Source of the DNA: Takakia lepidozioides
Lineage: Eukaryota > Plantae > Bryophyta
Direction of reading: 5' to 3'
Assembly (NCBI GenBank): GCA_030704615.1
Contig: CM060733.1
Span: 64,604,001 to 64,668,000, forward strand
Length of the DNA stretch: 64,000 bases
Positions 25,820 through 63,780 of the stretch are shown here, piece by piece. Both the position numbers and the translations under genes were made by a program. Under the pieces are notes generated by a model that saw only the letters and a program-made list of their open reading frames with translations, did no database searches and was not told the origin of the DNA. Numbering within the stretch: the first letter of the stretch is position 1; each line of letters begins with the position of its first letter.

Positions 25820-25924
25820 CGCTCATGAAATCCGCGTATCTTAGACTTCGGCTCACCGCTCATGCGGCTCATGCGGCTCATGGCTCATGGCTCATGGTTT
25901 CTGCTCATGAAATAGTAAACCTCC
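25820..25924 (-). repeat. Right terminus of copy A (degenerate TIR plus GCTCATG repeats)
   Basis: GCTCATGCGGCTCATGCGGCTCATGGCTCATGG...GCTCATGAAATAGTAAACCTCC. Transposase-homologous sequence (PTCMAVCNAKQYY) begins immediately after it. Confidence 0.8.
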
Positions 25925-29123: not shown

Positions 29124-29675
29124 CTATGGTCCCCTCGCCCAAGAAGAAGGAACTCGAACTGGCCTCTCAAGGACCTCCTGAGTGACCGGGTGCCGATATT
29201 TGAACAAAATGTCAGCGGTTTCTGTCGCCCGATTGAAACTAACGAGGATGTCGTGTTTATCGATAGCGCCCCCTTTGTAGAAGGACATTTTCACAGTGGG
29301 CCCTGTGTTCCCCTCCTCCTCATCCTCATAACTGAAGAGAATGTCCCCACTTTCCGAGCCAGTCCATCCACGCGTGAAGTTTTCACCTATGCACTCATCA
29401 TACGTCCACTCGCAACAATTCCAGCGATACAGCAACGCTGTGCATGATCTGTTCGGCTCCCACTCAAGCGGAAAGTCCAGGTCCATGATGCGTAGGAACT
29501 ACCTGCTCCCCAGCCGGGGTCCAGGAGACTCGTGCAATCCTGGAAGAAACTCCATTGCTCTCAACTGGACAAGTCGAGGATCGTCCCTGTAAACATCTAG
29601 GAAGACAATGATGTCATCTGCTTTCGGGACAATGACTCCCGTCTGGCGTCGATAGATGTGATTCGGGCACGACAT
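29124..29675 (-). pseudogene. RWNCCxWT-family small protein with one internal stop
   Basis: LRAMEFL, LLYRWNCCEWTYDECIGENF, GGAIDKHDILVS, EVLERPVRVPSSW; stop at about 29499. Confidence 0.7.
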
Positions 29676-29909
29676 GGCCTCACGACACAGCAAGAACTCA
29701 GAGCAGGGAGGAGATGGGCACAGCAGAGAAGAGTGAAGAGCAAAATGAGAGCGAGGCCGGCGGAAGAGGGATATATCATTGCTGCACTGCCAATGTCGTA
29801 TGCGGCAGAACTTCTATTTCCTCCGACATGTGTGCTTTTATTAGACAAATCCGCACCAGTTTCAGGAGAGTTTGCAAAACTCCCTCACCGTAAGGCGGGT
29901 ATTTGCTCT

Positions 29910-30330
29910 CCGGAGCCCAATTTCGGCGCCGTTATTGGATGGACTGCGGAAGCTTCAGCCGAGAATTTTGTTTCCGGACCCCAATTTTGGCACCGTTATT
30001 GGTTGCACTCCCCAGCCTTCAGCCGGGTATTTGGTTTCCGGACCCCAATTTTGGCGCCGTTATTGGCTGCACTCCGGAGGCTTCAGTCGGGTATTTGGTT
30101 GGCGGAGCCCAATTTCGGCACCGTTATTGGCTTCACTCCCGAGCCTTCAGCCAGCTATTTCTTTTCCTGTGCCCAATTACGGCGCCGTTATACCCAACCA
30201 TCCTGCACTTCTGCAACAGTACTATCCACAGTTATAGGTTGCCATTGCGTTTTCGGAGTCTGCAAACCCGGATCCTAATTCCGCTTGCGTCTCTTCCTCT
30301 GGGATAATTTCGGTGCCGTTATTGCCCAAA
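29910..30330. repeat. 64-bp tandem array with the imperfect palindrome CCAATTTCGGCGCCGTTATTGG
   Basis: Units at about 29919, 29983, 30047, 30111, 30175 and 30306. Confidence 0.9.
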
Positions 30331-30359: not shown

Positions 30360-30589
30360 GTCCATGAGCCTGGGCTCCAAGTCATGAGCGGACACTGGTA
30401 CTTATGAGCGGAGTGCTTCTAGCATGAGCGCGGAAATCTTCGAAAACCTTCTCTTCTTATACTACTTTCGATTATTTTATAGTTTTGGGCCCGAAAAAAA
30501 TCTGCCGAAATTCGAAGTGTGTTACTTTGCGGCTCATGGGTGAGCCATGCCCGCTCATGAGCTCATGGCTCATGGAATAGCAACCCCCC
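30360..30589 (-). repeat. Right TIR and subterminal CATGAGC repeats of copy B
   Basis: The reverse complement GGGGGGTTGCTATTCCATGAGCCATGAGC matches the left end at 11130 with 2 mismatches. Confidence 0.9.
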
Positions 30590-31287
30590 ACTTCATTGCT
30601 CTCAATGATTCTTACTTATGTCTAGAATTGTCAGTGAAAACGGTGAGGAAGACAAGGATGTCTCCAGATTTGGGTGTGAACATAGCATACCTTCTCCCAA
30701 AATAAGGGCACTCATTTCGATTGCGGCGGCACGATATCTTTGCAAATGAATCACGTCAGACGACACTGCAGGAAGAGTATTTCAGCACTCAACAGACTGT
30801 GTAGGGAAATAAGAATGAGCTTGTAGACACTACCCTTCATTACTTATATTCCACAAGATATTTGAGTTTCCCCCCTTACAGGGACTTGCACGGATGATGA
30901 TTGGTGGCTCCATGAATGGAGCCGTTTTTTTTTTTTTTTTTTTTTTTTTTTCCATCATTGCGATGGAAACCCTACGCCGCATTTCTCATCCGACTGTACC
31001 CGGTGGAAAGAAGGTGCCGCAATTGCTTTCTAGCATCCTACGACCGTGGGTCATTACCCTATTCCCATAGGCATGTATTTGTGTGAGGTTGAATTCTCAT
31101 GAGCATAGACCCAAAATTCCATGAGCAGATACTGCCGAACAGGGAATTACACGGTATTCGGTGGAATATTCCTTGCCAAAAACAACTCCAAACCTGCGCC
31201 GAGCCTATACCAAACCCAATTTTTTTTTTTCACTTGGAATCCCCGAAGCAAAGTTGTAGGTCACGTGAATGACCGAGCCTGTGCTGT

Positions 31288-34590: not shown

Positions 34591-35147
34591 TCACGTTGTC
34601 AATGGGACTTTGACTGCTTTGAAAACTAGCTCATGAGTCATCGGGCTCCTCCAGGTAAACTGGATTGCAGCCGTTGTACCGCCCCTGTTGAGGTTCACCA
34701 CAATGTCGTGCCCTTCAATCATACCACCATCAAATATGGAAAGCTTCACGTTTTCGTCGTCCACACCAATGCGAATGTCCCCATACAATGGAGAAGAGGA
34801 GTGCACTCCTTCAGGAGTATACGTCTCTCCGATGGAGTCCACCCACGTCCACTGGCAGCAGTTCCACCGCAACAACATAGCAGTGCGCATTCTTCTGCAT
34901 GGGTGCCCGTCGTAGCTGGGAAAATTGGAATCAAGGATGCGCAGGAGCCACGGACTCCTCAGACCAAGATCGTCACCCTGCTCAAAGGCGTAGTGGCTTG
35001 GGATATACTCAAAAGCGGACAATGTTTCCACATTCGAACCAGTATCTTCTCTGTGTACCAGATAACGATGTCTCCCGATGTGGCCGAATACATTGTATAA
35101 TCGAAGCCTCCATAAGGGCAGTCGTCCCGGTTCCGGAAGCACGACAT
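34591..35147 (-). pseudogene. RWNCCxWT-family small protein, frameshifted
   Basis: Counterpart of 11594-12157 in copy C. Confidence 0.7.
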
Positions 35148-35688
35148 CCTTGCAAAGGAGGACCTGAGGACGTCTTTGATGCCGATGACAATGACCTTGC
35201 GGACAACAACGAAGCCCTTAGATTTTTGAAATGATGAGAAGCGGAAGAGCAGTGCGGGCTCCAATAATGGAGCATCTGGGTCCCACGTACCCACCAATCA
35301 TCGTGTAACGTGTACATCACGCCAGCGGTGGATGAACCGATACCTCTTTCTCATCCACGGGGTATAGTTTGAAATCTGCCACCGAAGTCCATCCCCCGGA
35401 TGGGAATTCGGCGCCGCATTATGGACTTCGTTGTCTCGAGTGGCTATAGGCCCACCTGGCACTTACTGCCCATAGTTTGCATGGCAGGGAAGGAAACTGA
35501 AACGGCTACATTCATGGAGCAGCCAATCTTCATCCGTGCAGGTTCCTGTAGGGGGGAAATTTAAATGTGCCCTGGAGTGTTTGTGAGGAATTCCAGCGTT
35601 TGCTTGAACTTCTTCCAGCCACCGCACTGCTGCCTCCTCCATCCGGGAGCTGCTGTCATTGAGCGTACTCCGCTAATCTTTTTCAAGG

Positions 35689-36267
35689 ATGTCGTGCCGC
35701 CAAAATCCTGCTGACTGCCCTTATCATGGCCACGATTATGCTATGTTCAAACCAGAATCAGGAGACATCATTGTCTGGCTCTCTGTTTTCATTGACGCTT
35801 CTGGAATCAAGCGGGAGTCTTTGCGCGCAATGGAGTATTTGGAGGGCTATTACCGCTTTGAGCGAGGTGAGGGCGAGGGTCAATGCGGTCCGTGGGTCCT
35901 GAAAATTGTTGACCTCAATATACTAAGCTGGAATGGGATGCCGGACAGATCACGCACGGCCTCGCTTTGGCGCTGGAACTATTGCCAGTGGACCAAGGAG
36001 GACGGCACCGGGGAAAACTATATTCGTGGAGTTCACTCCGCTCTTCCAGTGTATGGAGACATTCGGCTGAGTTGCGAAGATGAATTGCACGGGCACATGA
36101 GGCCCACAATGACCTTGTCAATGTATGATGGTGGTATCATTGATGGGCATGACATTGTCGTCAGCTCCACCAAGGGCACCAGAACGACCGCATTGCAGTT
36201 TACCTCGAGGTGCCGCATCAGTAATGAGCTTGTTTTGAGGGCTATCGAAGTTCCGTCGACTTGGTGA
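35689..36267 (+). CDS. Intact 192-aa transposon-encoded protein of unknown function (RWNCCxWT family)
   Basis: Open ATG-to-stop ORF, alignable end to end with three paralogues in this window. Confidence 0.75.
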   Translation: MSCRQNPADCPYHGHDYAMFKPESGDIIVWLSVFIDASGIKRESLRAMEYLEGYYRFERGEGEGQCGPWVLKIVDLNILSWNGMPDRSRTASLWRWNYCQWTKEDGTGENYIRGVHSALPVYGDIRLSCEDELHGHMRPTMTLSMYDGGIIDGHDIVVSSTKGTRTTALQFTSRCRISNELVLRAIEVPSTW

Positions 36268-39779: not shown

Positions 39780-41025
39780 CTCATGAATTTCGGCACCGAA
39801 ATCTGGATGAACATCTCTGTAATGTAACAGATTTGGAAGCCAGAGGATGAATTCTGGCGACAGAAATCGTAATTTGTTCACCTCATTAAACTGAGCAAGC
39901 ACCCGACGGATGGATTTTGGTGCCGAAATTCGGATGAACATGTTCTTCATGAAATTGTTTCTGCCCATAAGGGTTGAATTTCGGCGCCGAATTACGGATG
40001 AATGTGTTCGTGATTACAGTCATGATTCACCACGTGTCCGGATTTCGGTGCCGACATCCGAATGACAGTAATCTTGAATCGGCAGTAGGGATGAATTTTG
40101 GCGCCGAAATTCATCCTTACTGTCCGCAATGGGTAACTATAATATTACATTTTCTATGCGACGGATGAATTTCGGCGCCGAAATTCGTCCGAACCCGACA
40201 CTTACTTCTTGCTTCTGGATAATGTAATGTTCCGAAATTCGTTTGAAATAACCCATTCCGACGAAGATAACACGAATATTCTGCATTAAATGGAGAAATC
40301 GGCACATTCAACCCCATATGTCTTACAAAAGGCCGTTATCCAATGACGAAAGGGGATATTTTTTCATGTTGGGGGAAAATTAATTGCATTTTAGCCGTTG
40401 TTTTCATTTGAAACTGACAGTATCCATTAAGTTTTCATTTTTCGCACGGGACGTTGCCGCACATAAAGTATAATTCCGGTGCCGAAATTATAGTTAACTG
40501 TCCAGACATGGCAAGTCCAACAGGCATGGACAGCAACCGTGAGGGGCAATAATGGCGGCAAAGCGTAGCATGGTGCCGATTTAGTCTTCGCGCTGGATGA
40601 ATTTTGACGCTGAAATATGGATGATTTCACCTCGTCTACGCGCGGACGGAGATATTCTTAATGAATTTCGGCGCTGAAATATGGATGAAATGTGCCCAAG
40701 TGCAGCCGTCTCCACTGTCCCAGATTAATTCCGGCTCCGATATCCGACTGACAGGTTTGCTCATGACGGATGAGGACTGGGGAAGCGATGAATTGCGGCG
40801 CCGAAATTCATAAGTTTGTGTATGAAAGCACTTGCATATGATGAATTTTGGCGCCGAAATTCATCCGTCCGCTGATGAAACGTACCGACTTGACTGTTGA
40901 ATGTCATAGGCAGGGGATTTTCATGGCGGTTGGGTTTCATGATGTGCGGATATTTCATTCAATGTCGGCTGCTCCGGGAACAGCATCCGGTGAACGGAAC
41001 GGTATTTCGGTGCCGCAATTCGGAT
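39780..41025. repeat. Array of type-II palindromes (GGAT)GAATTTCGGCGCCGAAATTC(ATCC)
   Basis: Copies at about 39785, 39849, 39913, 39976, 40040, 40093, 40167, 40599, 40663, 40726, 40790 and 40843. Confidence 0.9.
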
Positions 41026-42404: not shown

Positions 42405-43100
42405 AATTCAGGTCTTAGTCCACTCACAAACCAAGTCTTCTGTAATCCTGGTGCTGGTACATCAACCAGTTTTTCATCATTAACTCCATCTTTTCCATAT
42501 ATTCTTCAACAATGTCATGCTTCTTTTGCCTCAACTGTTGTAAACTCCCATACACTTCATCTTCAGTTTTGCTTGTCCTGAACCTGTTTCGGAATGCTGT
42601 ACTTAGGCCATTCCAGGTTAGGAAATGATTATTAGGAAACCTTGCATACCATTCACTTGCTTTCTTGATAAGTGAACAAGAAAACAATCTCATTTTGGCA
42701 TCATCGCCATTCTCGTTGTTCATAATACACATGTGCTCAAATTGGCTGATGTGTACATCAGGATCCCCTTTTCCTGCATATATTGGAAAATGTGGCTTTG
42801 CCCGTGTTGAAGGTACTGCCATCTGTGGCCCTACACCCTACCCTTTGATAGGTGCTGGTCCTCATGTAGGTGTTGGTCCTTGAGGACCTGCTGTTGTAGT
42901 GGTGGAACTCCCACCGAGTGTTGGCCCCTAAGCACTCCCTACTACTGGCCCCCCTGTACTTGCAGTACCCTCAGCTCCAGTTGCACTACTTCCCACACTC
43001 CCTATCCCCCCAGAGCCAGATCCAAGCTGCCCGCCTGATCCCCCTGAGCCGACACCTTTGTTGGCCTGTGATCCAAGTGCTCCACTTGATCCAGGTCCAA
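42405..43100 (-). pseudogene. Ty3/gypsy gag fragment
   Basis: YAGKGDPDVHISQFE, RLFSCSLIKKASEWY, TWNGLSTAFRNRF, LRQKKHDIVEEY. Confidence 0.8.
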
Positions 43101-45400
43101 CAGTAGAAACGACAGCGTTGACAATGGCTGAGATGAGGTTACGGTCAGGATGATGGTGGTGGGAGGAGGGGCGGGCAATGTGGTTGCAGATGAGGAATAA
43201 GGAGGTAAGGTTGTCAGTGAAGATGAAGTATGGGGGGGGGGGGGAGGTATCGAGTAGGAGGAGAGCGTCGTATATGGCCATAAGCTTGACCCTGAGAATA
43301 GTTGCAGGGCCAGGGAGTTTGAGGGCCACTCCTCTCCCCGTACCTGTGTGATAGATACCGTAGTTTGCATTAGTTTGAGTAAGGGATCCATCAGTATAAT
43401 GAGAGTTCGCGGGAGGGTATTTGAGGGGGTAGGATTGCCGGTACAATGAGGGAATGGGGGGGAGGGGGTTTGTTGGTGTGGCATGTGGAGGGCGCTGCAG
43501 TGCCTCAATCCAGGCTTTATTTGTTTTAATTCTGGGGAGGGGGGTAGGTATATTTGTACAATGGGGGATAGGTGGGTGGTGGATGATGGCCTTTATTTTA
43601 TGAGTAATGGTTAGTAGATGTTCTAGTTTGTGACAGAAAGGTGTGGGTATGGCAGCGTGGTGGGGGTTTTGTACATGCAAGATGAGGGATAGGGTGGGTT
43701 CATTTTGCCTGAGGTATTTGGGAAAAGGAGGGGTATGGGTATATTTAAGTTGGTTTAGGTCGATTGTGGCTAATAGCTTGACCCTAGCAGGGAGGCGTAG
43801 AAGTGGGTGGGAGGTGGTAGGTGTGTTTTGTTGTGTGAGGATGAGGATAGTTGAAGCATAAGAAGATGAATGCGCAACATATTTGGCCCATTGAAGAGCT
43901 TCATGGGCGAGGGGTCCAGATGGAGGGTGAGCGAGACCACGGCCCTCCCATGTATGCTGAGTAGCATTACCAGTGGCCCCGAAAATACAATCTCTTTGAT
44001 GTGGGCTAGCAAATGTGTCGAGTTCCATAGGGCAGGTTAATGGGTTGAAGTAGTATGAATGAGTGATCTGGAATGTTTTGATAAGTAAGACGAGAATATC
44101 TTTGGGAATAGTATGGTGTGCGCTTGCCGTTTCTAGCCGTGCAAGGGAACGTGGTTTTTTAGGAGGGGTGTCTTTGAGATAGCGGTCGATAAGCCAATAT
44201 ACTTCTGTGGCAAAATCTTGTTTTGGTGGGAATAGCTCCTGTGGGTATGTCTTTGGGGCAGAGTATAACTTGCTCCATAGCCATGTTAATCTATCGTTGG
44301 GGATAAGCCCTATGTAGCGGCCATTTTGTGCATATATACTAGAAAGGCGGGGGTCCATGCAGATTAGTGGTTGAGCATGTTGGATATCTTTGTCCGGATT
44401 ACATTCAACTATGCATATGTGTATGTTGGGGGCCGAGATCAGCTTATGAATGTACCTGTTGTCTGTATGCTGGATGGGGGTGGCATGTTGTTGGTGAATA
44501 TGTGTTAGGTAGTCAATGTTAGTGGTTTTGTAGAACATGGTGAGAAGGGTGAGATTGTGGTCTGGGTCACAATCATCGTGTGGGCCGAATAGATCATCTT
44601 TTATTTGCCATGTATTGTCTTCGTCAGGGTAGCCGCCCACTTGCAATGGTAGTATGTGTCAACACGGGTGGCCCCGAAGGCGTCAGTTGACGTTTGGGTT
44701 AATACCTAGTATGGCTTCAATAACATAGGCATCAGGGTTATCAGAGTTATGCGGGGAGGTAGGGTGGGGCATTATGGGGGATAGTGGGGGGTGGGTGGGA
44801 GGGTCTTGTGTATTGGCTGGGGAGGTTAGTGTTAGGGAAGAGTTGCTGGTTGGCATAATATGTTGTATGGCACGTACTTGAGGAAGGGGATCAGGTTCCG
44901 TAGATGCGGGGGTGTTAGCGGTGTTTGATGTGCAAAGCTTCTGGTAAATGGAGGTGGTTGGGGTTCATATATTGAGGGAGCAAATCTTGGGCTGTGTGTG
45001 GATAGTAAGGGCAGGGAAGATTACAATCAAGGGTGCAGGCTTGGGATGGGTGACAGAAGAGTGTGCGGAGGTGCTGTAAGTACCGGCTAGTTTTGGTTGT
45101 AGCACGCAAAAATTTAGTAGTGAATTCACTTGGCCTTAAAAGTCGGCGACCTGTTGCTGTGATAAGTTGGGTGAGGGTAATAATGTGGCGCTCTTTGAAA
45201 TAAGTGAGGATGGGAATTTTTTGTTTTGGGTGAGAGCGTTCGACTCGTGATAGGAAAGGACTTGTGATCCATGTGCGTTCCATTTGGCGGAGGATGAGTA
45301 GTGTATGCGCAGTGGGGGATGTGCAAGCACACAACAGGTTCCAGCGTTCCTCCTCCCTTGCACTCCAAGCTCGCACCTTCACAAAACTGTCTTTTCGCAT
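43100..45400 (-). mobile_element. Non-LTR retrotransposon fragment with RNase H (same family as 32700-34110)
   Basis: YTDGS...LPGPATILRVKLMAIYDAL...IFTDNLTSLFLI...HHHHPDRN closely parallels 32740-32950; strong C/A skew on the coding strand. Confidence 0.75.
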
Positions 45401-47249: not shown

Positions 47250-48153
47250 GAGCAGAGCTGGCATGAGGTTCTTAAAGATCCTTCACAATGGTGGGACAAC
47301 CGCAATTGCAAGGTGTGGCTTTCTTAATGCTGGACGGGAAGAAGTTTGTCCATCCTGCAAAATGTGGGCTCTTCCTGTTAGTATCACGATTTGGTAATTT
47401 TCCTGGTGTTTGTAAGGTACTTGGGGATGGTCAGTGTGGTCTTAGGAGGCCGAGTTTAGATCTATGGCTGCTCAGTTGCACCATGCTGGTTCTCCTCACA
47501 GACCGATTCGAGATTGCCTGACTACAGACACAAGCAGCACACACAAGGGGACCTTTTGGGTTGATGGTCAGTCGAATCCTCCAAGGGTGAAAGAAAAGCT
47601 AGCTGCTTTCATGACACAAGGTCAAGGACAACTTGGTGAGGGCACCTCCTTCATCAACACAATTCAGTGTTTTTTGCCCTCTCATCAGAGTCGTCCTAAT
47701 TTTCCATGTTGAGTTTTGCAAGTAACCTCGTTTGGTGGATCTATTTGTGGTTGGTGTGATTTTCACATGTTACTGCCAATGTGGCAGCAGGAAAGTATCC
47801 AAAAACAAATAACAAAGACGAGGAGAAGCTTTGGAATGAGTATTTTTCCGACCCCAATCAATGGTGGGACAATCGAGGCAAAAAGGTGAATGGCTGTTAG
47901 ATTACAGAGAGAAGCAGACAACAAGATGCAATACAAAGCTTTGTTGGCAATTGTCATCCTCTCTCTCCCCAGCACAGTTTTAACGTCTTGGGCACTTCAG
48001 CATCAGAGGTAGTGTGTGATAAGTAAGGTTGGGGTGTTTGCTAGAACAAATCTAGGCTGTCATTGTCAGCTGCTAGCAGCAAGGCGAGGGCCTATACTTG
48101 AATGGTGCAGAGGCAGGGCAAGCTGAAGGAGCAGGGATAGAGTGTGGGTCCAG
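47250..48153 (+). CDS. Putative upstream exons encoding OSB-type PDF motifs, apparently spliced to the PPR exon
   Basis: WHEVLKDPSQWWDNRNCK|gt (to 47312); ag|TDSRLPDYRHK..WVDGQSNPPRVKEKL (from 47502, one frameshift); EEKLWNEYFSDPNQWWDNRGKK|gt (to about 47885); ag|IHERGPDFKHKITYDPLW (from 48154). Confidence 0.65.
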
Positions 48154-51100
48154 ATTCATGAAAGAGGGCCGGATTTCAAGCACAAGATTACGTATGATCC
48201 CCTGTGGATTGATAGCCACAAGAAACCTGCATGGGTAGATGGTCAACTGGAAGCAGCAGCAGCAACAGCAGCGGCACAGTTGATAAAATCAGGCACATCG
48301 ACCATCACCACAGCTTCCAAAAGAGGAGCAAGAGAGGGTGTCCACAATGCTGCTTCTGGCACTTCTGGGCATGTGAGGACGCTATGTGAGGCAGGGCAAC
48401 TGAAAGAGGCTCTACAGACTTTAAACCAAGGAGGCATTTCAGTAGATTCAGATACTTATGTCTGTCTCTTGCGTAAGTGCATCAAGATGAAAGGTCTGGA
48501 AGCTGGAAAGCAGGTGCACGCTCACATTATCCAAAGTGGATTCAAGCCAAACGTTTTCCTAGACAACACCCTTGTCAACATGTATGTTAAGTGTGGGAGC
48601 ATCGTGGATGCTCACCAAGTGTTCAACAGAATGCCTCAACGATGTGTGGTCTCGTGGAATATAATGATGGCAGGATTTACCAAGAATGGGTGTGGTAGGA
48701 ATGCTTTGGAGACATATGAGCAAATGATGCGGGAAGGTGTGAAGCCCAACCAGATCACCTTTGTTTGTGTGTTCAATGCGTGTGCGAGCCTTGCAGCCCT
48801 GGAAAAGGGCCAAGAGGTCCATGGTGACATCGTCAAAGCTGGAATTGTACCAGATGTCATTCTGAACAATACCCTTGTGGACATGTATGCCAAATGTGGG
48901 TGCATGGAGCAGGCAAAGCGAGTGTTCGACAATATGGTTGATCGAGATGTGGTGTCGTGGAGTGCAATGATTGCAGGATATGCACTGCAGGGGCGTGGGA
49001 TGGAGGCTTTGGAGACCTATTTGCAAATGATGCGGGAAGGTGTGAAGCCTGACCACATCACGTTTGTTTGCGTTTGCAAGGCATGTGGAAGCCTGGCAGC
49101 TTTAGGAAAAGGCAAAGAGGTCCATGGTGACATTGGCAAAGCTGGAATTGTACCAGATGTCATGCTGAACAATACGCTGGTGGACATGTATGCCAAATGT
49201 GGCTCCATTGAGGACGCAAAGGGAGTGTTTGACAATATGGCTGAACGAGACGTGGTCTCATGGAGCACCATGATTGCAGGATATGCACAGCAGGGGTGTG
49301 GGCTGGAGGCTTTGGCGACCTATGAGCAAATGATGAGGGAAGGGGTGAAGCCCAACAAAATCACGTTTGTTTGCGTTTGCAATGCGTGTGCAAGCCTGGC
49401 AGCCCTGGAAAAGGGCAAAGAACTCCATGGTGACATTGTCAAAGCTGGAATTGTACCAGATGTCATTCTGAACACTGCCCTGGTGGACATGTATACCAAA
49501 TGCCGGAGCGTTGAAGATGCAAAGGAAGTGTTCGACAATATGGCTGAACGAAATGTGGTGTCCTGGAGTGCAATGATCGCAGGATATGCACAGCAGGGGT
49601 ACGGGATAGAGGCTTTGGAGACCTATGAGCAAATGATGCGTGACGGGGTGAAGCCCAACCACATCACATTTGTTTGCGTTTGCAATGCATGTGCGAGCCT
49701 GGCAGCCCTGGAAAAGGGCAAAGAGGTCCATGGTGACATCTTCAAAGCTGGAATTGTACCAGATGTGATTCTGAACAATACCCTGGTGGACATGTATGCC
49801 AAATGTGGGTGCATTGAGGATGCAAAGGGAGTATTTGACTATATGGCTGAACGAGATGTGGTATCGTGGAATGGGATGATCGCAGGATATGCACAGCAGG
49901 GGCGCGGGATGGAGGCTTTGGAGACCTATGAGAAAATGATACTAGAAGGGGTGAAGCCCAACCACATCACGTTTGTTTGTGTTTGCCATGCGTGTGCAAG
50001 CCTGGCAGCCCTGGAAAAGGGCAAAGAACTCCATGGTGACATTGTCAAAGCTGGAATTGTACCAGATGTCATTCTGAACACTGCTCTGGTGGACATGTAT
50101 GCCAAATGCCAGAGCATTGAAGCTGCAAAGCGAGTGTTCGACTGTATGGCTGAACGAAATGTGGTGTCATGGAGTGCCATGATGGCAGGATATGCACAGC
50201 AGGGGCGCGGGATGGAGGCTTTGGAGACCTATAAGCAAATGATACAGGAAGGGGTGAAGCCCGACCATATCACATTTGTTTGTGTTTGCAATGCGTGTGC
50301 GAGCCTGGCAGCCCTGGAAAAGGGCAAAGAGGTCCATGGTGACATCGTCAAATCTGCAATTGCACCAGATGTCATTCTGAACAATACCTTGGTGGACATG
50401 TATGCCAAATGTGGGTGCATTGAGGATGCAAAGGGAGTGTTTGCCAATATGGCTGAACGAGATGTGGTGTCCTGGAACGCGATGATCGCAGGATATGCAC
50501 AGCACGGGCATGGGATGGAGGCTTTGGAGACCTATGAGAAAATGATACAGGAAGGGGTGAAGCCCAACCACATCACGTTTGTCTGCGTTTGCAATGCATG
50601 TGCAAGCTTGGCAGCCCTGGTAAAGGGCAAAGAGGTTCATGGTGACATTGTCAAAGCTGGAATTGTACCAGATGTGATTCTGAACAATACCCTGGTGGAC
50701 ATGTATGCCAAATGTGGGTGCATCGAGGATGCAAAGAGAGTGTTTGGCAATATGGCTGAACGAGATGTGGTGTCGTGGAACGCTATGATTGCAGGCCATG
50801 CACAGCATGGTTGTCATAGGGAGGCCCTACAACTATTTGAAGGAATGCAAATGGAAGGCTTGAAGCCGGACAGTATCACCTTTATATGTGTTCTCTCTGC
50901 TTGCAGCCACGTTGGCCTATTGGATGACGGAAGACGCTACTTTGATTCCCTGAGTCAAGATCATGGTGTCACTCCCACAGTGAAACACTTTGGCTGCATG
51001 GTGGACCTTCTTGGACGTGCGGGACGATTGGATGAGGCAGAGGACCTCATTAATCAAATGCCAATCAAACCAGATGCTGTGGTGTGGAAGGCCTTGCTTG

Positions 51101-51690
51101 GTGCCTGCAGAATCCACGGCAATGTGGAGATGGCTGAACGTGCGGCAACATCTATTCTCAAGTGGGATGAACAGGATGCTGCGACTTATGTGTTGCTATC
51201 AAACATCTATGCCGCAGCTGGGAGGTGGGACGATAGTGCCAAGGTGAGAAAAATGATGAAGGTCAGAGGGGCTAGAAAGGAGCTCGGTTACTGCCGCATT
51301 GAGGTCGGCAACAGGGTGCACACCTTTGTTGTGGATGACAAATTGCATTCCAAAATTAAGGCAATCCATGCTGAGCTGAGAAGATTGTCTGGGCAGATGA
51401 AGGAGGCAGGGTATGTGCCTGACATGCGCTTTGTATTGCATGATGTGGGGGAGGAGCAAAAGGAATTTTCTCTTTGCCACCACAGTGAGAAGCTGGCCAT
51501 TGGTTTTGGGCTGATCAGCACGGCCCCTAGGACGCCTCTCCATCTCATAAAGAATCTTCGGGTGTGTGGTGACTGCCACACCTCCACCAAGTTCATCTCA
51601 AAGATTGTTGGCCGAGCCATTGTTGTACGGGATGCTAACCGCTTTCACCGCTTTGAAGATGGGGTTTGTTCTTGTGGGGATTACTGGTGA
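48154..51690 (+). CDS. PLS-class PPR protein with E and DYW deaminase domains (organellar C-to-U RNA editing factor)
   Basis: L-S-(P-L-S)x7-P2-L2-S2, E1/E2, HHSEKLA, CGDCH and terminal CSCGDYW; uninterrupted ORF of about 1180 codons. Confidence 0.95.
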   Translation: MHERGPDFKHKITYDPLWIDSHKKPAWVDGQLEAAAATAAAQLIKSGTSTITTASKRGAREGVHNAASGTSGHVRTLCEAGQLKEALQTLNQGGISVDSDTYVCLLRKCIKMKGLEAGKQVHAHIIQSGFKPNVFLDNTLVNMYVKCGSIVDAHQVFNRMPQRCVVSWNIMMAGFTKNGCGRNALETYEQMMREGVKPNQITFVCVFNACASLAALEKGQEVHGDIVKAGIVPDVILNNTLVDMYAKCGCMEQAKRVFDNMVDRDVVSWSAMIAGYALQGRGMEALETYLQMMREGVKPDHITFVCVCKACGSLAALGKGKEVHGDIGKAGIVPDVMLNNTLVDMYAKCGSIEDAKGVFDNMAERDVVSWSTMIAGYAQQGCGLEALATYEQMMREGVKPNKITFVCVCNACASLAALEKGKELHGDIVKAGIVPDVILNTALVDMYTKCRSVEDAKEVFDNMAERNVVSWSAMIAGYAQQGYGIEALETYEQMMRDGVKPNHITFVCVCNACASLAALEKGKEVHGDIFKAGIVPDVILNNTLVDMYAKCGCIEDAKGVFDYMAERDVVSWNGMIAGYAQQGRGMEALETYEKMILEGVKPNHITFVCVCHACASLAALEKGKELHGDIVKAGIVPDVILNTALVDMYAKCQSIEAAKRVFDCMAERNVVSWSAMMAGYAQQGRGMEALETYKQMIQEGVKPDHITFVCVCNACASLAALEKGKEVHGDIVKSAIAPDVILNNTLVDMYAKCGCIEDAKGVFANMAERDVVSWNAMIAGYAQHGHGMEALETYEKMIQEGVKPNHITFVCVCNACASLAALVKGKEVHGDIVKAGIVPDVILNNTLVDMYAKCGCIEDAKRVFGNMAERDVVSWNAMIAGHAQHGCHREALQLFEGMQMEGLKPDSITFICVLSACSHVGLLDDGRRYFDSLSQDHGVTPTVKHFGCMVDLLGRAGRLDEAEDLINQMPIKPDAVVWKALLGACRIHGNVEMAERAATSILKWDEQDAATYVLLSNIYAAAGRWDDSAKVRKMMKVRGARKELGYCRIEVGNRVHTFVVDDKLHSKIKAIHAELRRLSGQMKEAGYVPDMRFVLHDVGEEQKEFSLCHHSEKLAIGFGLISTAPRTPLHLIKNLRVCGDCHTSTKFISKIVGRAIVVRDANRFHRFEDGVCSCGDYW

Positions 51691-52687: not shown

Positions 52688-54455
52688 TTACTTGCATAAC
52701 TCTCCGTGTTCAATAGCTACTTGAGCTGCTCCCAAATCTCGTTCAGCCATACTGTCGAACACTCCCTCCGCATCCTCGATGCACCCACATTTTGCATACA
52801 TGTCCACGAGGGTATTGTTCAGAATCACATCTGGTACAATTCCAGCTTTGGCGATACAACCATACACCTCTTTGCCCTTTTCCAGCACACGCACACAAAT
52901 GTGATGTGGTCGGGCTTCACCCCTTCCACCATCATTTGCTCATAGGTCTCTAAAGCCTCTTCCCCGTGCCCCTGCTGTGCATACCCTGCAAGCATCGCGT
53001 TCCACAACACCACATTTCATTCAGCCATATTGTTGAACACTGCCTTCGCATCTCGATGCTCCCACATTTGGCAAACGTGTCCACGAGGGCATTGTTCAGG
53101 ATCAGGTACAATTCCAGCTCTGACAATGTTGCCATGGGCTTCTTTGCCCTTTTCCAGAGCTGCCAGGTTTGCACATGCATTGCAAACCCACACAAACGTG
53201 ATGTGGTTGGGCTTCACCCCTTCCCCCATCATTTGCTCATAGGTCTCCAAAGCCCTCCACCACACGTACCTGCTGTGCATACCCTGCAAGCATCGCGCTC
53301 CATCTCGTTCAGCCATATTGTTGAAAACTGCCTTTGCATCCTTAATGCACCCACATTTGGCATACATGTCCAACATGGCAGTGTTCATAATGACATCTGG
53401 TACAATTCCAGCTTTGACGATGTCACCATGGACCTCTTTCCCTTTTCCAGGGCTCCCAGGCTTGCCCACACATTGCAAACACAAACGAACGTGATGTGGT
53501 TGGGCTTCACCCCTTCGCGCATCATTTGCTCATAGGTCTCCAAAGCATTCGTACCACACCCATGCTTGGTCGTTGAGGCATTCTGTTGAACACTTGGTGA
53601 GCATACATGTTGACAAGGGTGTTGAGTAGAAAAATATTTGCCATTAATCCACTTTGGATAATGTGAGTGTGCACCTGCTTTCCAGCTTCAAGGCCTTTCA
53701 TCTTGATGCACTTAAGCAAGAGACAGACATACGTATCTGAATCTGCTGAAATGCCTCCCTGGTTTAAAGTCTGTAGAGCCTCTTTCAGTTTGTCTGCCTC
53801 AGAAAGCATCTTCACATGCCCAGAAGTGCCAGAAGAGGCATTGTGGACTCCCTCTCTTGATCCTCTTCCATAATCTGTGGTCATGGTTGAGGCGCCTGAT
53901 TTTATCAACTGTGCCGCTGCAACTGCTGCCTTTAGTTGACCATGTACCCATGTAGGTTTCTTGTAGCTATTGATCCACAGGGAATCATAAGTAATCTCGT
54001 GCTTGAAATCTGGCCCTCTTGGATGAATCTGGACCCACACTCTATCCCTGCTCCTTCAGCTATCCATGCCTCTGCACAAATCATGCATTCAACTTTACCT
54101 TGCTGCTAGCAGCTGACAATCACAGCCTAGATTTGTTCTAGGAAACACCCAATCACACTAGTTCCTATGCTGAATTGCGTCTGCTACTCGCTGTAATCTA
54201 ACAGGCATTCAACTTTTTGCCTCGGTTGTCCCACCATTGACTGGGGTCAGAAAAGTATTCATTCCACAGCTTCTCCTCATCTCTGTTACCTGTTTTTGGA
54301 TACTTTCCTGTTGTCACATTGGCAGTATCATGTCAAAGTCACTCCAAACTAGATTCACTCAACCAGCTAACTTGCAGAATTCAACGTGGAAATTTAGGGC
54401 CGATTCTGATAAGAGGGGAAAACAGGGTGAAATGTGTTGAAGAAGCAGTGCCTGA
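52688..54455 (-). pseudogene. Inverted, frameshifted and truncated paralogue of the PDF-PPR gene
   Basis: GPDFKHEITYDSLW, PLS repeats in shifting frames, and an upstream EEKLWNEYFSDPSQWWDNRGKK exon at about 54215-54305. Confidence 0.9.
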
Positions 54456-56375: not shown

Positions 56376-56527
56376 GGTTTGGGGATGTGCGAGCAAATGA
56401 TGTGAAGCCGGACTGTGTGTTGTGCATGTCGTCTTGGTAGCGATCAGATGTGTTGGCTTCAATTCTCTGCCCTTAGAATGTTGGTGAGCTGGATGTGCCT
56501 ACCTTGATTTTTTATATATGGGGTGCA

Positions 56528-57440
56528 GGAGTTGGGCATTACATCAGACGAGGGTCTGAGTCTGGATGAGCTCCCCAAGAAAGTGGTTGTTGTCGGTGGT
56601 GGGTCTCTATGTTGGATGTGAGAAGGAAAGACTCCACAACACATAACGAACTCATACATTGCATGTTCTTGACAAGTGACCTCTGTGCAACTTTCCTTCC
56701 ATGCTTCAAAACTTGTGTTGGTCGTCACAACAGGATGGCCAAATTGTTCATAGTTAAATCACGGAGGAAATGAAGAGCAGTTTTGTTCATTAAGTTGTGG
56801 CTCCTGTGAAATAGAGGAAGGTGTTGGATGCAGCAGTTCCATCTTTTCCTATTCTGAAGCTGAATGATGGAGGGATTGATATGGTGGTGTGTGGAATAGG
56901 TACATCGTTGTAGAGTTTGTGGGTATCTATAATGGCATGGGAGCTGAGGTGGACTTGTTCTACAGGAAGCCTCTTCCTTTGACGTAAGTGGAGAGATTGG
57001 TTTTGTATTTTGTAGCTGTAAGTGTCCCTGTCTGTGTGATCAGGGTTGGAGGTGACTTGAATAGGTCCTGTCTGTGTTGGTGAACTTCAGCTAGCAACGC
57101 TTGATCCTTCCATGCTGGAGTGGACAATGCACGCAAGGGACTCACATGATGAATTGGTCGTTTGAATTGATTGAAAGAAACCCTGTAAGTGACTTCTGTG
57201 TAGGGGTTTTGACGAGGAAATGAGATCTATTGTAGCTCGCAACTTGGAGGGCCGAGGCATCAAATGTCACCCCGGTGTAAATATTACAAAGGTCGGAATT
57301 TATCTTCTTTTGTTTGCTAGTCTTACTCGTGCATGAATCCACAAACCCAGGTTTGTTGATTGAATGAGGAGCAGGAGAGTGGATGTGTGACCTGAGGAAC
57401 GAAATCCAAAATTGTGCCAGATACCATACTTTAACCTGCC
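56528..57440 (+). pseudogene. Glutathione reductase gene fragment (2-3 exons with introns)
   Basis: [24 protein letters not shown] (56528-56600) and [27 protein letters not shown] (56900-56983) match the NADPH-binding region of plant GR; flanked by AG/GT. Confidence 0.75.
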
Positions 57441-58612
57441 CTCATCAACATATACTGTAAATGTGGCAGCATATATGATGCAAACAGAGTGTTGAAAAAA
57501 TGGCTACACGAAATGTGGTGTCATGGAGTGCAATGATTGCAGGATATGCCCAGTATGGGTTTGGTAAGGAGGCGTGTCATGGAACACAATGCTTGCAGGG
57601 TATCCACAACAGAGACGTGGTATGGAGGCTTTGGAGACCTATGATCAAATGATGGGGGAAGGGGTGAAGCCCGACCACATCATGTTTCTGTGCATTTGCA
57701 GTGCGTATGCAAGCTTGGCAGCTCTGGAAAAGGGCAAAGAGGTCCATGGCAACATTGTCAGAGCTGCAGTTGTACCAAATGTCATTCTGAACAATACCCT
57801 CGTGGACATGTATGAAGGGAGTGTTCGACAGTATGGCTGAACGTGATGTGGTGTCGTGGAGTGCGATGAGAAAATGATACAAGTAGTGGTGACACCGGAC
57901 CAGGTCACGTTCATCTGCATTGTCAATGCCTGTGCAAGCCTGGCAGCCCTAGAGAAGGGCAAAGTTGTCCATGATGACATCATGAAAGCCAGAATTGTGA
58001 CAGATATTGTTCTGGATACTGCCCTGGTTGCATGTATGCCAAATGCGGTGACATACAGGATACCCGTCATGTGGTTGACAATATGGCTCAACGCAGTGTG
58101 GTCTCATGGAACACAATGATCACAGGATATGCCCAGCATGGGTGTGGTAGGGAGGCTTTGGAGACCTATGAGCAAATGATTCAGCAATGGGTGATTCTGG
58201 ATACTGCCCTGGTGGACATGCATGCCAATTGTTGGAGCATAGCTTATGCACGTCGAGTGTTTGACAACATGGGTCAAAGAAGTGCGATCTCATGGAATGC
58301 CATGATTGCAGGATATGCCCAGCGTGGATGTGGTAGGGAGGCTTTGGAGATTTACGAGCAAATGATACAGGAAGGATGAAACCTGACCAGGTGATCGCCT
58401 TCATTTGCGTTGTGCGTGCTTGTGCCAGCCTGGCAGCCCTGGAGAAGGGCAGACTGGTGCATGCTGACATCCTGAAAGGTGGAATTGTGCCAGATAGCTT
58501 TCTTGAAAATACCCTGTTGGATATATGTATTCCAAATGCGGGAGCATAAATGGTGCAAAACAGGTGTTTGACAATATGACTCAACGAGATGTAATCTCAT
58601 GGAACACCATGA
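57440..58612 (+). pseudogene. Degenerate PLS-PPR repeats
   Basis: Same repeat family as 48154-51690, with many frameshifts and stops. Confidence 0.9.
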
Positions 58613-61600
58613 GCTGCGGATGGAGGATGGTGTCTTTGAGGTGCGAATCCTCCGCAGGCAGATCGCCTCGAACATCCTCATCTGCCAAAGATAGCAGGTT
58701 AGTGTGGTAAACACAATCCATAGTGGAAGTGTGTACATCTGCTATTCAGAACTCAGACACAAAAAAATCATTTTTATCACGAATCGGTGATGATCGTTGT
58801 CGATCATAACAGATTCTACTAGAGTGGAGCTGCAGAGAACATTGAAACTCATCATGAAAGCACAAGCAGAAGGGAGACGGCATACCAGCTGACCAGGGAA
58901 ACCCCCTTTCACAAGGTAGAGGCTGTTCACACAATTCCATGTGCGCAAAACTTCAAACCCTGAAGACTTGAGGTATGATGCCAATGCCCGACGACTATCA
59001 TTGTCACATGACTGAAAAATCAGAAGTGTCCCTGCATCAGAGAGGAAGTTATTACAGAACCCGAACACCCAACTCCAGTAGTTGTCCTCGAATTTGTTCC
59101 AGCCTGGCGTCTTGCCCTTTGGAAGAACTTCTGGCACAGCCTGGCCATCCGGAATGTCGAGAATAACAATGTCGGCCGCATAAGTTTTCTGCACACCGCA
59201 CACGAAGGTGGGACCTGTGCTCACCTGCAACAGACATGTTTTTTATAAGAACGAAAGCAAGAATGTTTTCAAAGAACGAGACTGAAATACTGCCAACGAA
59301 ACTTTCAGAGAAAAAGGAAAGAAACTGGAATTCTCACCAGATTGAGGAATGAGATTATATTGTCCCAGGTAGGCGATGGCACCCCAATGTATCCTCTCTT
59401 TCGACTTTGCATCATTGACAGTCAACCCCCATTAACAATTTTCATCTCTCCTGCCGAATCAGAATGGGAAGGGTGTGGCTTGGCATCGAACACGCACTGA
59501 ACAGTGCGGGTATATCTTCCAGCAGTAAAGTCCTGCCCACTCTCCATCTCCTTTTTTTTCTCCTTCCCCTTGTCTTTTTCCTTCTCTTTGGACTTGTCTT
59601 TGTCCTTTGGCTTTGCTGGTGAGATGGCTATGACATCAACAGCCTTGTCTTTTGGTTTGCGGCCCGCCTTCTTTCCCTTCTACGGCGTTCCCTGAGCATC
59701 AGGCACCTTGGCAGCCAATGTTGCTATGTTTCGTTGGTACTCTTCGTCAGTCAAAGGCGCCAGCATCTCAACGTTATTGTTCAAGTATTTCATATGTTGT
59801 TCTTGAAAGGTCGTGTGCTCCGGTGGGCAGTCAAGGTACCACCCACAGTCTCTGAAGTGAGAAGGACTCCAGTCCTTCAATATCCCTGCAGTATACATGG
59901 TTGGATCGTTTGCAGGGTCCGACCACATGTCAAGATAGTCTGGAATTCCGCTCAGGTGATTTCCTTCCATAAGCACATATTTTGTGTACCTGAAAAAAGG
60001 AGATAAATCCCAACCCACAAAAGCGCTCAGTGAGTAAGATGCAAGTAGAACAGAATGAAAAAAACATAGATTGAAATGGCTCTGAGAACTGCTCCAAAGA
60101 CCTTTCAGGACCACACGAATGCTCCAGATGTGAATGTCGTCAACGCCATTCAAAACATTCCATTCAATGATACTGTAAATACACCCTAATCCAGGTGAAT
60201 GCAAACTATCGTTTTGGAATGACACGGACATAGAAGTGAATGTCGTCAACGACATTCACTAATCAAGCCTAATTATTCCTCAAATGAAGCAAAATCACAG
60301 GATGGAAATCATAAACTCGAGTAAGGAACCCTCCAGGAAAACTCAATGCACATTCATAACGAACATATCACTGAGGACCTCACAACAACACTGTATGTGA
60401 ATGGCGTCAACGCCATTCACAAAAATACCAACAAGGAACCAATTACTCAGCTCCTAATCCATGTAAATTCAAATTGTCGCTGTTGAATAATACAGACACA
60501 GAAGTGAATGTCGTCAACGAAATTCACTCTGGATTTCTCATAACAGAGCTTATCAAGCCTCCAGATTCCTCGCAAGAGGCAAAAACAATGCAGAACAACT
60601 GAATGTCTGCATTGACATTCAGCAATATGAAGTGAGGAACCCTCACTGTAACCTCTATGGACATTACAAAAATTTACATAACTCTGAGGACCTCTCAACA
60701 ACTCCGGATGTGAATGTCGTCAACGCCATTCAAGGACATTTTCAATTCTAATCAGGGACACTATAATTACACCCTTAGATCCTAACCAGGTGAATTCATA
60801 TACTCGCTTAAGAATGACTCAGACAAAGAAGTGAATGTCGTCAACGACATTCAATCTGGATCTATGATTACAATCCTTATGAAGCCACATTTTTTTATTC
60901 CCGAAAAAAACAATAGAGTTTCAAGTATGACATTGCACTTGTACACAACTCGCATCATGGCCCACTCTCCTCCAACCTGACTGTCAAAGTCGTTGGACCG
61001 TAAAATGTTACCATCTTTGGAGAACTCCCGGAAAAAACAGTATCTCCAGGTGAGACCTCTCCACTTCCTTATGTATGCCTCCAATGACATTTGGGGAGGG
61101 GAAACAATCGAAATGTTCAGGTCCTTCAAAGTCTGATCCAGCACAATGACGGCGCGCTTTTCGAGTTGCAAATAGTATATTTGTCAGAATTGCAAATAAG
61201 ATACTCATCACATACTTGAAGAGAAGAAAACGGTGTTTGAATACACACCTTACTCCAAAATGTAGCCTTGTGGAGCCAGTTATCAAACACCAAATCACTG
61301 ATTCCTTCCACCTTTGTGCCAGGCTGTATGGTGCTCTTTGGGAACTGATTCAAGTCCTTTACTGTTTGATCTGAGTTCCATATCTCCAGCCACCTTATTT
61401 TTGTTTGTGGGTCGACCATCGATATGGCCAGCCGGTGCAATTTCTCCTGCTGCATCTCCGGATGCACATGCTTGTCATAGTGTGTTTTGATCTGCTGAAG
61501 GAACTCAGGACCAAGTCCAAGATCTACTATTTCTAAGCTGCTTTCCGAAGGCGGACATCAACTTGGTTCTTCGAATTTCAAACTCCTTCTTTATTGCAGT

Positions 61601-62093
61601 TTCCACACCCTTTGATGTCCTTAGTTCCTCTGGTGTAGTGCGGTAATATTCGGATTTTCCCTTCTCAGCTGCCTCTGCCAGTTCTTGCTGCATTGATTCA
61701 AGTAGTGATTAGCTCCGAAGGGACTACAAATATGTATTCGAAAAGTAAACAGAGTACAGACTTGGGCTTACCACATACATGTACTCCAGAAACGCCTCTC
61801 GTGTCAAAGAATACCAAGTGCCTGCAGCTCTTCCTGTTTCGCACTTCTTGATGATATTGGGTGGTAGTACTGTCCAAAAATCATCCAGCTTCATCAGACC
61901 AATCCTCTGAATTCGGAATAGTGTGTGAACCAAGCTTGTTGTCACATGCAATTTCTCTGTCGATCTGCAAAAACATTGGAAACATTGCATTCCTTAACAC
62001 TGTTTTTTGAGGATTAATAAGACACTACAGAGGGAATGAAATCTCCTGGATGACTTACTTGTTCACGTCGTGCATAGTTGTAAGAAGCCTAGC
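58610..62093 (-). pseudogene. Diverged ParB-MTase-family gene fragment (copy D)
   Basis: ADIVILDIPDG..PGWNKFEDNYW..FLSDAGTLLIF..WNCVNSL; HVTTSLVHTLFRI..GTWYSLT; QQEKLHRLA; LLTTMHDVN|gtaag. Each aligns with a copy A exon, in the same order. Confidence 0.75.
60129..60855. repeat. Six palindromes GTGAATGTCGT-CA-ACGACATTCAC within copy D
   Basis: Copies at about 60130, 60236, 60397, 60504, 60710 and 60831. Confidence 0.85.
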
Positions 62094-63780
62094 GATGTCG
62101 TTTCCAGGATCCAAAACCATTGCCTCCACAGCAACATGCTTGTCTTTGTCTTTCGTATTTTGCCTCAGTCGAGGACATAGCAATTGTAGATTGTTTCTTG
62201 CTGCTCCAGCTTACAGCTCCATTTGCTAGCATAAAAACATAGCCAGATGTAGAGTGGCGGTCATCAATATTACCAGCCCAATTTGCATCACAATAGCCGT
62301 ATAGCTCTGTGCTTTTGCAAGCACTATCTGAGATACCATATGAACCCACTTGATCCAACTGAACATTATCATTGTTCTTTCTTAAGCACAAACCATAGTC
62401 CAGTGTGCCTCTCAGATAACGAAAAATCCGTTTTATTGCAACCCAATGGAGTTGCCCAGGGTTAGCCACATATTGGCTTACAACCCCCACTGCTTGTGCT
62501 TTGAGAGTTTGCAATTTGGGACAAACGGGGTATTTACCGGCATACTTTCAACCATACCAAAGCGCCTTAAGATATCTTCAAGATATTTACGCTGGTTCAG
62601 GTAAATCGCTCGGTCTTGTCGAACACGAGTTACCGATACCCCCAAGCAGTACTAGATCTCTTTCAGATCCACCATCTCAAACTTCATTGAGATATCGCTC
62701 ATTATCTTTTTCAACAGAGCCTGATCAACACATGATCACAAGATCTCTTTCAGATCCACCATCTCAAACCTCTTTGAGATATCACTTTGTCTTTCTCAAC
62801 AAAGCCTGATCAACATATAATCACACGATCTTTTTCAGATCCACTATCTCAAACTCTTTTGAGATATTACTCTGTATGTGTTTCAACAGAGCCAAGTCAT
62901 TAGAGACCAAAATCAGATCATCAACGTACAGTGTTATGATCACAAAAGAGTTTCCATGAGCCCTCTTATAGTAAACACTATAATCAGCAAAGCTCCTCTC
63001 AAACTCTTCAGCCATGAAATATGCATCAATCTTAGCATTCCATGCCTTAGGGGGATTGCTTCAAACCATACAAGGACTTGAGGAGCTTACACACCATCTT
63101 TTCCTTCCTTTTTACAGCAAATCCCTCCGGCTGGTCCATGTATATTTCTTCCATAAGATCTCCATTGAGAAATGTTGTACATACATCCATCTGATGTACC
63201 TCAAGATTTTCAACAGTAGCAAATGCTAGAATCACTTGAATTGACTTCATCCGTGCAACAGGGAAGAAGGTTTCATTGTAATCAATACCTTCAATTTGCG
63301 AGGACCCATTTGCAACCAAGCGCGCTTTGTACCTTGCTACAGAACCATCTGCATTGTACTTAATCTTGAAAATCCATTTGCAGCCAACAGACTGCCGTCC
63401 AGATGGAAGTTGAACAAGACTCCAGGGCAGAAGCATGCTACAGTGGCTCACTTTGCGAAATTTTTGTCCAGTCTAAACTAATCTACTTTTTTTTATATCT
63501 TTTTTTTATATGAACTTCAAATTAGGTGTTGCAATTTATTCTTGTTGTCAACTCAATTTGAAATCACCCAAAAATTGGTTTCCAAACAAAGTTGTTGTGT
63601 TTTGAAGATGAAAAATGAGAGTAGGGTAGAGTAGACTGGACAAAATTGAGCCACTGTAGCATGTTTCTGCCCTCCAAGTCTTATTATCCTGAAGAGACTT
63701 AAACTCAGATGTCATAGCTTCATTCCAGTGTGTGTACATCAAAGAGGCATGTGTCAGTAACACCCCTCTACCATATGTGA
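62094..63780 (-). mobile_element. Ty1/copia RT/RNase H fragment, degenerate
   Basis: WNEAMTSEFKSL, GCKWIFKIK, YKARLVA, HQMDV, SLYGLKQ, LYVDDL, GYCDANWAG, SSTEAKY. Confidence 0.9.

Follow-up and report, generated by a model that had tools for sequence, protein, structure and literature searches.

ParB-methylase accessory genes and inverted-repeat arrays are known from algal transposons, and the land-plant gene family described here is a variant of that design. In the brown alga Ectocarpus, the giant DNA transposon Sola1-1_Ec32 is described as encoding, on the strand opposite to its transposase, a protein of about 1100 amino acids with ParB-like and N4/N6 DNA methyltransferase parts, for which binding and modification of its own element were proposed; similar proteins were cited for green and red algae (PMC12477816). 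In Bostrychia, the Plavaka elements are described as carrying the accessory genes PAG2 and PAG3, with a ParB-like gene next to inverted-repeat arrays across families and a PF01555 methylase in the same cassette, with homologues in red algal Mutator elements (bioRxiv 10.1101/2025.02.11.637652). The plant family was studied in a 64-kb window, that is, the whole stretch of Takakia lepidozioides contig CM060733.1 from 64,604,001 to 64,668,000, which is plant DNA as judged by its PPR-DYW gene and Copia sequence; all coordinates below are positions within this window. Two members are compared throughout, namely D, a minus-strand gene fragment at 62155-58612, and A, a related gene at 18719-14350. The D copy is a dead relic, truncated on both sides, of a gene that exists in many copies and is probably an accessory gene of a transposon, and six copies of its own palindrome (dyad) lie in one of its introns.

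The plant family and Sola1-1_Ec32 share the ParB and methylase fusion opposite a transposase, a likeness drawn from the description and not from sequence homology. The Ectocarpus system differs in its host, a brown alga, and in belonging to the Sola superfamily, and the accessible part of its report names neither target palindromes nor a degenerate catalytic motif (PMC12477816). In Bostrychia, according to the available portion of the preprint, two different genes encode ParB joined to a putative 2-oxoglutarate oxygenase and the methylase joined to SET, whereas the plant family has one gene for the ParB and methylase-like parts, with dyads also in introns. No report of ParB-methylase genes in land-plant elements was found in the literature, with subscription papers, Repbase and the algal supplements lying outside the scope of this search.

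In Arabidopsis, VANDAL is a Mutator-type element with an accessory protein, VANC, and with family-specific short motifs that are described as amplified in tandem repeats of introns and intergenic DNA (PMC5735166). The plant family likewise has family-specific motifs in tandem repeats of its non-coding parts. However, the VANC motifs are 8-9 bp long, the word palindromic is absent from the accessible text of PMC5735166, and the action of VANC has been shown while that of the plant protein is predicted. No Pfam family common to VANC and the plant family was seen in scans of the plant proteins. In bacteria, KorB of RK2 is described as a ParB-family clamp with palindromic loading sites (PMC11790492). 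Phages have ParB-N6_N4 methylase fusions with a ParB plus PF01555 architecture, and nucleotide use in the ParB family is stated in the same source, as far as it is accessible, to be not predictable from sequence (PMC12704722). ParB-family clamps such as KorB were the top fold matches of the plant family; however, the known clamps are prokaryotic, and the plant family has no ParA partner. Its predicted beta-class fold in a eukaryote is shared with MpDN4MT1 of a liverwort and N4CMT of a rotifer, which, in the descriptions available, differ in retaining SPPY, in being host genes and in having no ParB domain.

Palindromes in an intron of the D-type gene

The preliminary description of this DNA had taken D for a strongly diverged homologue in which the DIPD motif and the intron behind the ParB-adjacent helix are kept, and this was borne out by the comparison with the gene at 14.3-18.7 kb. 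The D and A proteins were 29-40% identical, exon by exon, in well-aligning pieces, and both genes have DIPD and the phase-2 intron that follows the ParB-adjacent helix. By inspection, the positions of another four introns also agree. The intron structures differed in one A intron absent from D and one D intron absent from A. What remains of D, as listed below, is a multi-exon gene that has lost both ends, with seven whole or partial exons, and ParB Box II and the S-adenosylmethionine (SAM)-binding motif I fall outside the surviving piece through truncation. X5, X6 and X8 are sequencing runs, and X8 is an RNA run by our guess.

62156-63472, minus: right flank, Copia-type reverse transcriptase fragment, outside the element (RVT_2, E 8e-44)
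62059-62155, minus: end portion of the ParB-like exon, interrupted at 62155 by the Copia junction; loose ends in X5 and X6 extend further
61965-62058, minus: phase-2 intron after the ParB-adjacent helix
61772-61964, minus: exon, start of the helical middle region, 34% identical to the A exon (E 1e-11)
61249-61723, minus: exon, helical middle region, with a stop near 61711 and a frameshift near 61530
60939-61165, minus: exon preceding the dyad intron; its splice acceptor carries a lesion at 61166
59990-60938, minus: dyad intron, 949 nt, mostly three tandem units with two dyads each
60831-60854: dyad 6
60710-60733: dyad 5, same sequence as dyad 1
60599-60622: a seventh, degenerate palindrome that shares the outer arms, from the unit alignment
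60504-60527: dyad 4
60397-60420: dyad 3, arms perfect through a change on both sides
60236-60259: dyad 2, perfect arms
60130-60153: dyad 1, imperfect, identical to dyad 5
59338-59989, minus: exon, conserved start (38% identical to A over 53 amino acids) followed by a lysine-rich linker, with stops at 59682 and 59422
58886-59188, minus: exon encoding the initial half of the methyltransferase-like domain, including DIPD (59158-59147); acceptor placed by the X8 joint 59188-59338
58612-58681, minus: beginning of the following exon, which breaks off at 58612 so that motif I is lost; an X8 loose end at 58886 reads 58652-58681, and X5 and X6 continue past 58612
57480-58611, plus: left flank, degenerate PPR gene, outside the element

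The six dyad copies reported earlier were recovered as six sites with 0-2 mismatches, every one inside the 949-nt intron, and 100 shuffles gave 0 matches. Their arms are GTGAATGT and their core is CGT-CA-ACG, compared to CGG-NN-CCG in A and in the undecayed sites of relatives; D has the most divergent dyad specificity (CGT-NN-ACG core). The dyads are spaced by 106, 161, 107, 206 and 121 bp, corresponding to 10.1, 15.3, 10.2, 19.6 and 11.5 helical turns. The earlier observation of two pairs 106-107 bp apart, about 10 turns, was correct in its values; however, the two distances are one gap repeated in two of the three tandem units (about 270-310 bp each; the third unit has 121), and the full series gives no support for helical phasing of the dyads, in contrast to the A array with its mostly 53-bp gaps (25/29).

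Between the units, the dyads were 94-100% identical and the spacers 57-63%, and invariant columns across the three units made up 45/48 of the dyads versus 91/203 of the other ungapped positions. The two imperfect dyads have weak hairpins (-3.9 kcal/mol), yet they share one sequence, and CA at the centre never varies. Since imperfect dyads with weak hairpins are conserved together with the CA, recognition of the duplex fits better than recognition of a hairpin. CpG was kept in 12/12 cases in the D dyads and 107/116 in the A dyads, which selection on the sites explains equally well and which was not used as evidence of protection. The exact D dyad had 0 matches in metagenome contigs and viral contigs, the D core with perfect arms was found in 0 of the 80 metagenome loci described below, and a search of Rfam gave no match. 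A D-like dyad in locus L063 (3 mismatches) was set aside as chance, being a single copy in coding sequence, though 0/10 shuffles matched it.

Twelve sequencing runs were listed, of which eight had part of the D stretch and none was recorded as RNA, and the contigs of five were examined. In X5, 289 contigs fell on 58590-62200, with 58 at an identity of at least 99%, 105 at 95-99%, 77 at 90-95% and 49 lower, and this spread indicates that D is a multi-copy family. Contigs of other copies ran from an exon into the dyad intron (59527-60205 and 60826-60961 in X6; 60803-60970 in X5). Therefore, the dyads belong to the D family and are not a private insertion, and their absence from other D copies, which the preliminary description had named as the refuting case, was not seen.

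The three in-frame stops (near 61711, at 59682 and at 59422), the frameshift and the damaged acceptor are lesions of the D copy, which is truncated against a PPR pseudogene on one side and the Copia fragment on the other. In other D copies the reading frame is open at 59682 and 59422, the acceptor at 61166 is normal, the frameshift is missing and the sequence extends past both truncation points; the stop near 61711 was not among the rows shown. Among the positions that differ from X5, the D copy had A/T in place of G/C at 34, compared with 11 of the opposite kind, a bias as expected of methylation decay. In X8, one contig each skipped the dyad intron, skipped 59337-59189 with GT-AG ends, and joined 58886 to 58681. 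X6 had zero cover at 60284-60646, and the summed contig depth, which is not a copy number, was higher above D than above the Copia flank. A further X8 contig of 1642 nt and high depth had only 52 letters of the lysine-rich stretch (59536-59587) in common with D and is probably an unrelated transcript.

Relatives, predicted folds and palindromes in other organisms

A profile of the A and C ParB-like exons (C is a further gene of the window, at 41.5 kb) found 606 relatives at E <=0.001 among representatives at 50% identity; the named members among 10 looked up were from Riccia sorocarpa, Adiantum nelumboides and A. capillus-veneris. Together with the identity of D to loci of other organisms (up to 46%), which is as high as or higher than its 36% to A, this agrees with the old, diversified family proposed in the preliminary description. 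A length-limited search with the 1207-amino-acid Riccia member P0153 gave 23 relatives, every one from Riccia, and the C-terminus of P0153 matched PF01555 under the cut-off (E 5e-5).

The family protein is predicted, from models of Riccia relatives, to consist of a ParB/sulfiredoxin-like domain, a helical middle and a beta-class methyltransferase-like domain. The three best matches of the Riccia P0123 model were KorB (Z 7.8, root-mean-square deviation (rmsd) 6.5, 190 residues aligned), PadC (7.2, 4.1, 130) and ParB-N (6.5, 2.9, 98); sulfiredoxin was at rank 6, and the ParB/sulfiredoxin folds ranged from Z 6.1 to 7.8. The middle region is modelled as all-helical, and the KorB alignment extends into it (173-536), but at the rmsd of 6.5. 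For the Riccia P0154 model, ranks 1-7 were beta-class amino-methyltransferases (Z 8.8-10.1, rmsd 4.2-5.2, 162-189 aligned). Box II GxxR is present as DGNHR in A and C.

Pfam scans of the family proteins gave no family above the cut-off, nor any ParB match in the scanned proteins of the window and Riccia; word-indexed protein searches with A pieces had no match among longer proteins, searches of PDB sequences no meaningful match, and the viral contigs contained no relative of the family. In the Atlas, a D exon hit methyltransferase clusters at 0.87-0.88, which is a lead only.

Scanning metagenomes brought up 180 relatives; 80 of them, retained as loci with flanking DNA, represent 45 distinct loci at 98% and 25 groups at 80%. 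Among the 23 distinct loci in which the alignment reached the intron after the helix, it was at the same place with GT in 19 and AT in the other four. Homologues of the window transposase lay upstream, head-to-head, at 10/80 loci and at 6 of the 18 distinct loci with at least 5 kb upstream; the ParB and N4/N6 methylase fusion opposite a transposase was found in window A and in 6/18 distinct loci. No terminal inverted repeat (TIR) bounding an element was recognised in the 18 loci.

Palindromes were counted as arms of at least 5 bp around an 8-bp CG-N4-CG core, with CG decay allowed. In the 45 loci, 69 were found compared with 11-18 in three shuffles, an approximately fivefold excess, while seven other spacer lengths from 5 to 12 gave 10-25 palindromes versus 5-18 in shuffles. 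Of these 69, 44 were upstream, 24 downstream outside exon matches and one inside an exon match. Their density was highest within 2 kb upstream, at 5-7 per 10 kb versus about 1-2 further off. The arms differ by family (AACTTT, TACTTT, AGCATT, ATGT). Relatives thus have dyads of their own, in line with the persistent link between gene and palindrome claimed in the preliminary description.

The relative closest to D is locus L001 (46% identity), and upstream of it, at 8-200, are three palindromes with a CG-N2-CG core. In a tree of 39 rows, given with 36/45 loci after L043, L065, L073 and one Adiantum protein were dropped for low cover, D was placed outside the A/C clade with weak support, and no order of events is claimed. 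GGGAGTC-rich inverted repeats of up to several hundred bases flank or lie inside the gene in L018, L032, L041 and L059, and are probably nested non-autonomous elements.

Other genes and repeats of the window

The A-type element comprises the following features.

14350-18719, minus: A-type gene, containing a ParB-like exon, motif I and DIPD, and bearing a dyad of its own type in three introns (17412, 16203, 14942)
19336-21037: array of A-type dyads, situated between gene A and the transposase, 25/29 gaps being 53 bp
22107-25072, plus: probable Mutator-like transposase, head-to-head with the A gene, with a weak SWIM match only

The A dyad at 16203 is in the intron equivalent to the D dyad intron. 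Arms in the window are AAATG (A), GAATTT (C) and TGTT. The CGG-NN-CCG core occurs in dyads of two more types, with TGTT arms (31827, 32119) and with GAATTT arms (39787-40870, 29900-30330); the latter are upstream of the C gene and also near the right terminal end. The SWIM matches of the transposase were weak (Pfam, E 0.012-0.063), and we take it to be of the Mutator class from its motif pattern. Two tandem transposase copies, at 22107-25072 and 25919-28400, are about 70% alike in DNA, and the second is frameshifted. G-rich terminal inverted ends of the left type were seen at 11129 and 34143, and of the right type at 30561-30590; they have a short internal repeat that differs from the dyads. 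No matching target duplication was found at the TIR-like ends 11129, 34143 and 30590, including between 11129 and 30590.

A small gene family has four copies near element ends (11597-12013, 29127-29498, 34591-35217, 35677-36264), with no Pfam match in three scanned copies and no homologue in the 80 metagenome loci. A 576-amino-acid frame in LINE-like sequence at 42931-44658 (minus strand) had a PCIF1_WW match below the cut-off (E 2.7e-4), possibly a second methyltransferase-like domain in a mobile element. The PPR-DYW genes include an intact frame of 1187 amino acids with a 101-amino-acid period at 48127-51690 (plus) and decayed copies at 52700-54350 (minus) and 57480-58611 (plus). Exons at 56500-57300 (plus) presumably belong to a glutathione reductase-like gene, by their look.

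Proposed function of the protein and its sites

On balance, we lean towards the view that the accessory protein recognises its own palindromes, is loaded there and spreads in the manner of ParB, and protects the element from host CG methylation; the binding, the spreading and the anti-silencing are all steps that we infer. A dimer would read the two-fold site, that is, the CG-N4-CG core and the family-specific arms, would load at the dyad as ParB does at parS, and would spread along the element. The loaded protein may then block or reverse host CG methylation, as VANC does for VANDAL, and the element would be kept unsilenced. The sites would multiply via tandem duplication of non-coding units, helical phase being irrelevant in D. 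The methyltransferase domain would more likely bind than methylate, because DPPY/SPPY is replaced by D-x-P-x without an aromatic residue in every inspected member. A wider statement can be put forward only tentatively, and we consider it rather doubtful: that in seed-free land plants an old, Mutator-borne ParB-type clamp with a methylase turned CG-binding shield uses family-specific, parS-like palindromes and spreads against host methylation, with at least three specificities in one 64-kb window.

It is unlikely, in our estimate, that the same binding goes with an active methyltransferase domain, which would write N4-methylcytosine or N6-methyladenine on or near the dyads as a self-mark. Motif IV precedes motif I in window A and Riccia P0153, the permuted order of beta-class amino-methyltransferases, a SAM-binding-like motif I is kept in A and Riccia members, and the modelled fold is matched by M.MboIIA, CcrM, M.PvuII and rotifer N4CMT. 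Moreover, motif IV has kept its first Asp and its second Pro, and such a role is the one described as proposed for the Ectocarpus protein (PMC12477816). However, the catalytic (D/S/N)PP(Y/F/W) motif was not found: A, its second copy and D have DIPD, other members DLPT, DVPF, DFPI, DIPE and DVPR, and motif IV is variable and reads D-x-P-x without the aromatic residue wherever it is legible. In N4CMT, joint replacement of Ser and Tyr in SPPY is described as abolishing activity.

It appears improbable that the dyads are internal binding sites of the transposase, with their place in introns reflecting only where non-coding space is. The Cys/His N-terminus of the window transposase, which we take by eye to resemble a GCM finger, was counted for this explanation; searches of Pfam, PDB sequences and the Atlas gave this likeness no support. 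The A half-site ATGCGG is present in the GCM1 co-crystal DNA, as far as described, but for D the half-site and the GCM1 site do not agree. The AtMu1 transposase alone is described as binding and activating its own family; its described peaks are at TIRs, whereas the present dyads are deep within the element; the outermost 200 bp at either end of the A element contain no A dyads and bear another repeat. That the dyads are neutral by-products of tandem duplication or an unrelated foldback insertion, kept alike by hairpin-driven conversion, fits the threefold duplication of the D intron, the unrelated foldback insertions that enlarge introns in some related loci, and the absence of the D dyad from the metagenome and viral contigs searched, but is very unlikely and already largely refuted by the divergence of the spacers compared with the dyads, the conservation of imperfect dyads, the dyads of other D copies and the same core geometry beside relatives in other organisms.

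Several points weigh against the view that a ParB-like protein recognises palindromes of its own element and protects that element. The best DNA runs and the window may share one source. The splicing comes from one contig per joint in the single run guessed to be RNA, and another piece of that run retains the first intron. Both folds are those of Riccia relatives and not of D, with ParB Z below 8 and a mean predicted local distance difference test score of 53 for the methyltransferase model, and D itself is modestly similar to Riccia (32% over 56 amino acids, E 3e-5). No helix-turn-helix was identified. Among the 18 distinct loci with sufficient upstream DNA, 12 had no transposase; neither TIR nor transposase was found at the D locus or seen for any D copy. 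At least two same-arm dyads were present in only 9/45 loci, and 36/45 had fewer. The loci are related and decayed, the 8-bp core was picked after some of them had been viewed, and the core of L001 is shorter than 8 bp.

The algal papers leave open whether the ParB-type accessory proteins of transposons bind their own repeats. The plant family gives matched protein-site pairs (A, C and D, and the AACTTT, TACTTT and AGCATT types) with one core geometry and different arms, so that a swap experiment would test binding and specificity directly, and relatives of these plants are transformable. The D copy is dead, and its value is that of the most divergent specificity; the pairing of gene and palindrome at the level of the family is the part worth testing. 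If the shielding function is true, land plants would have, in addition to VANC, a second and independent anti-silencing system, and a bacterial clamp would have been put to use in a eukaryote.

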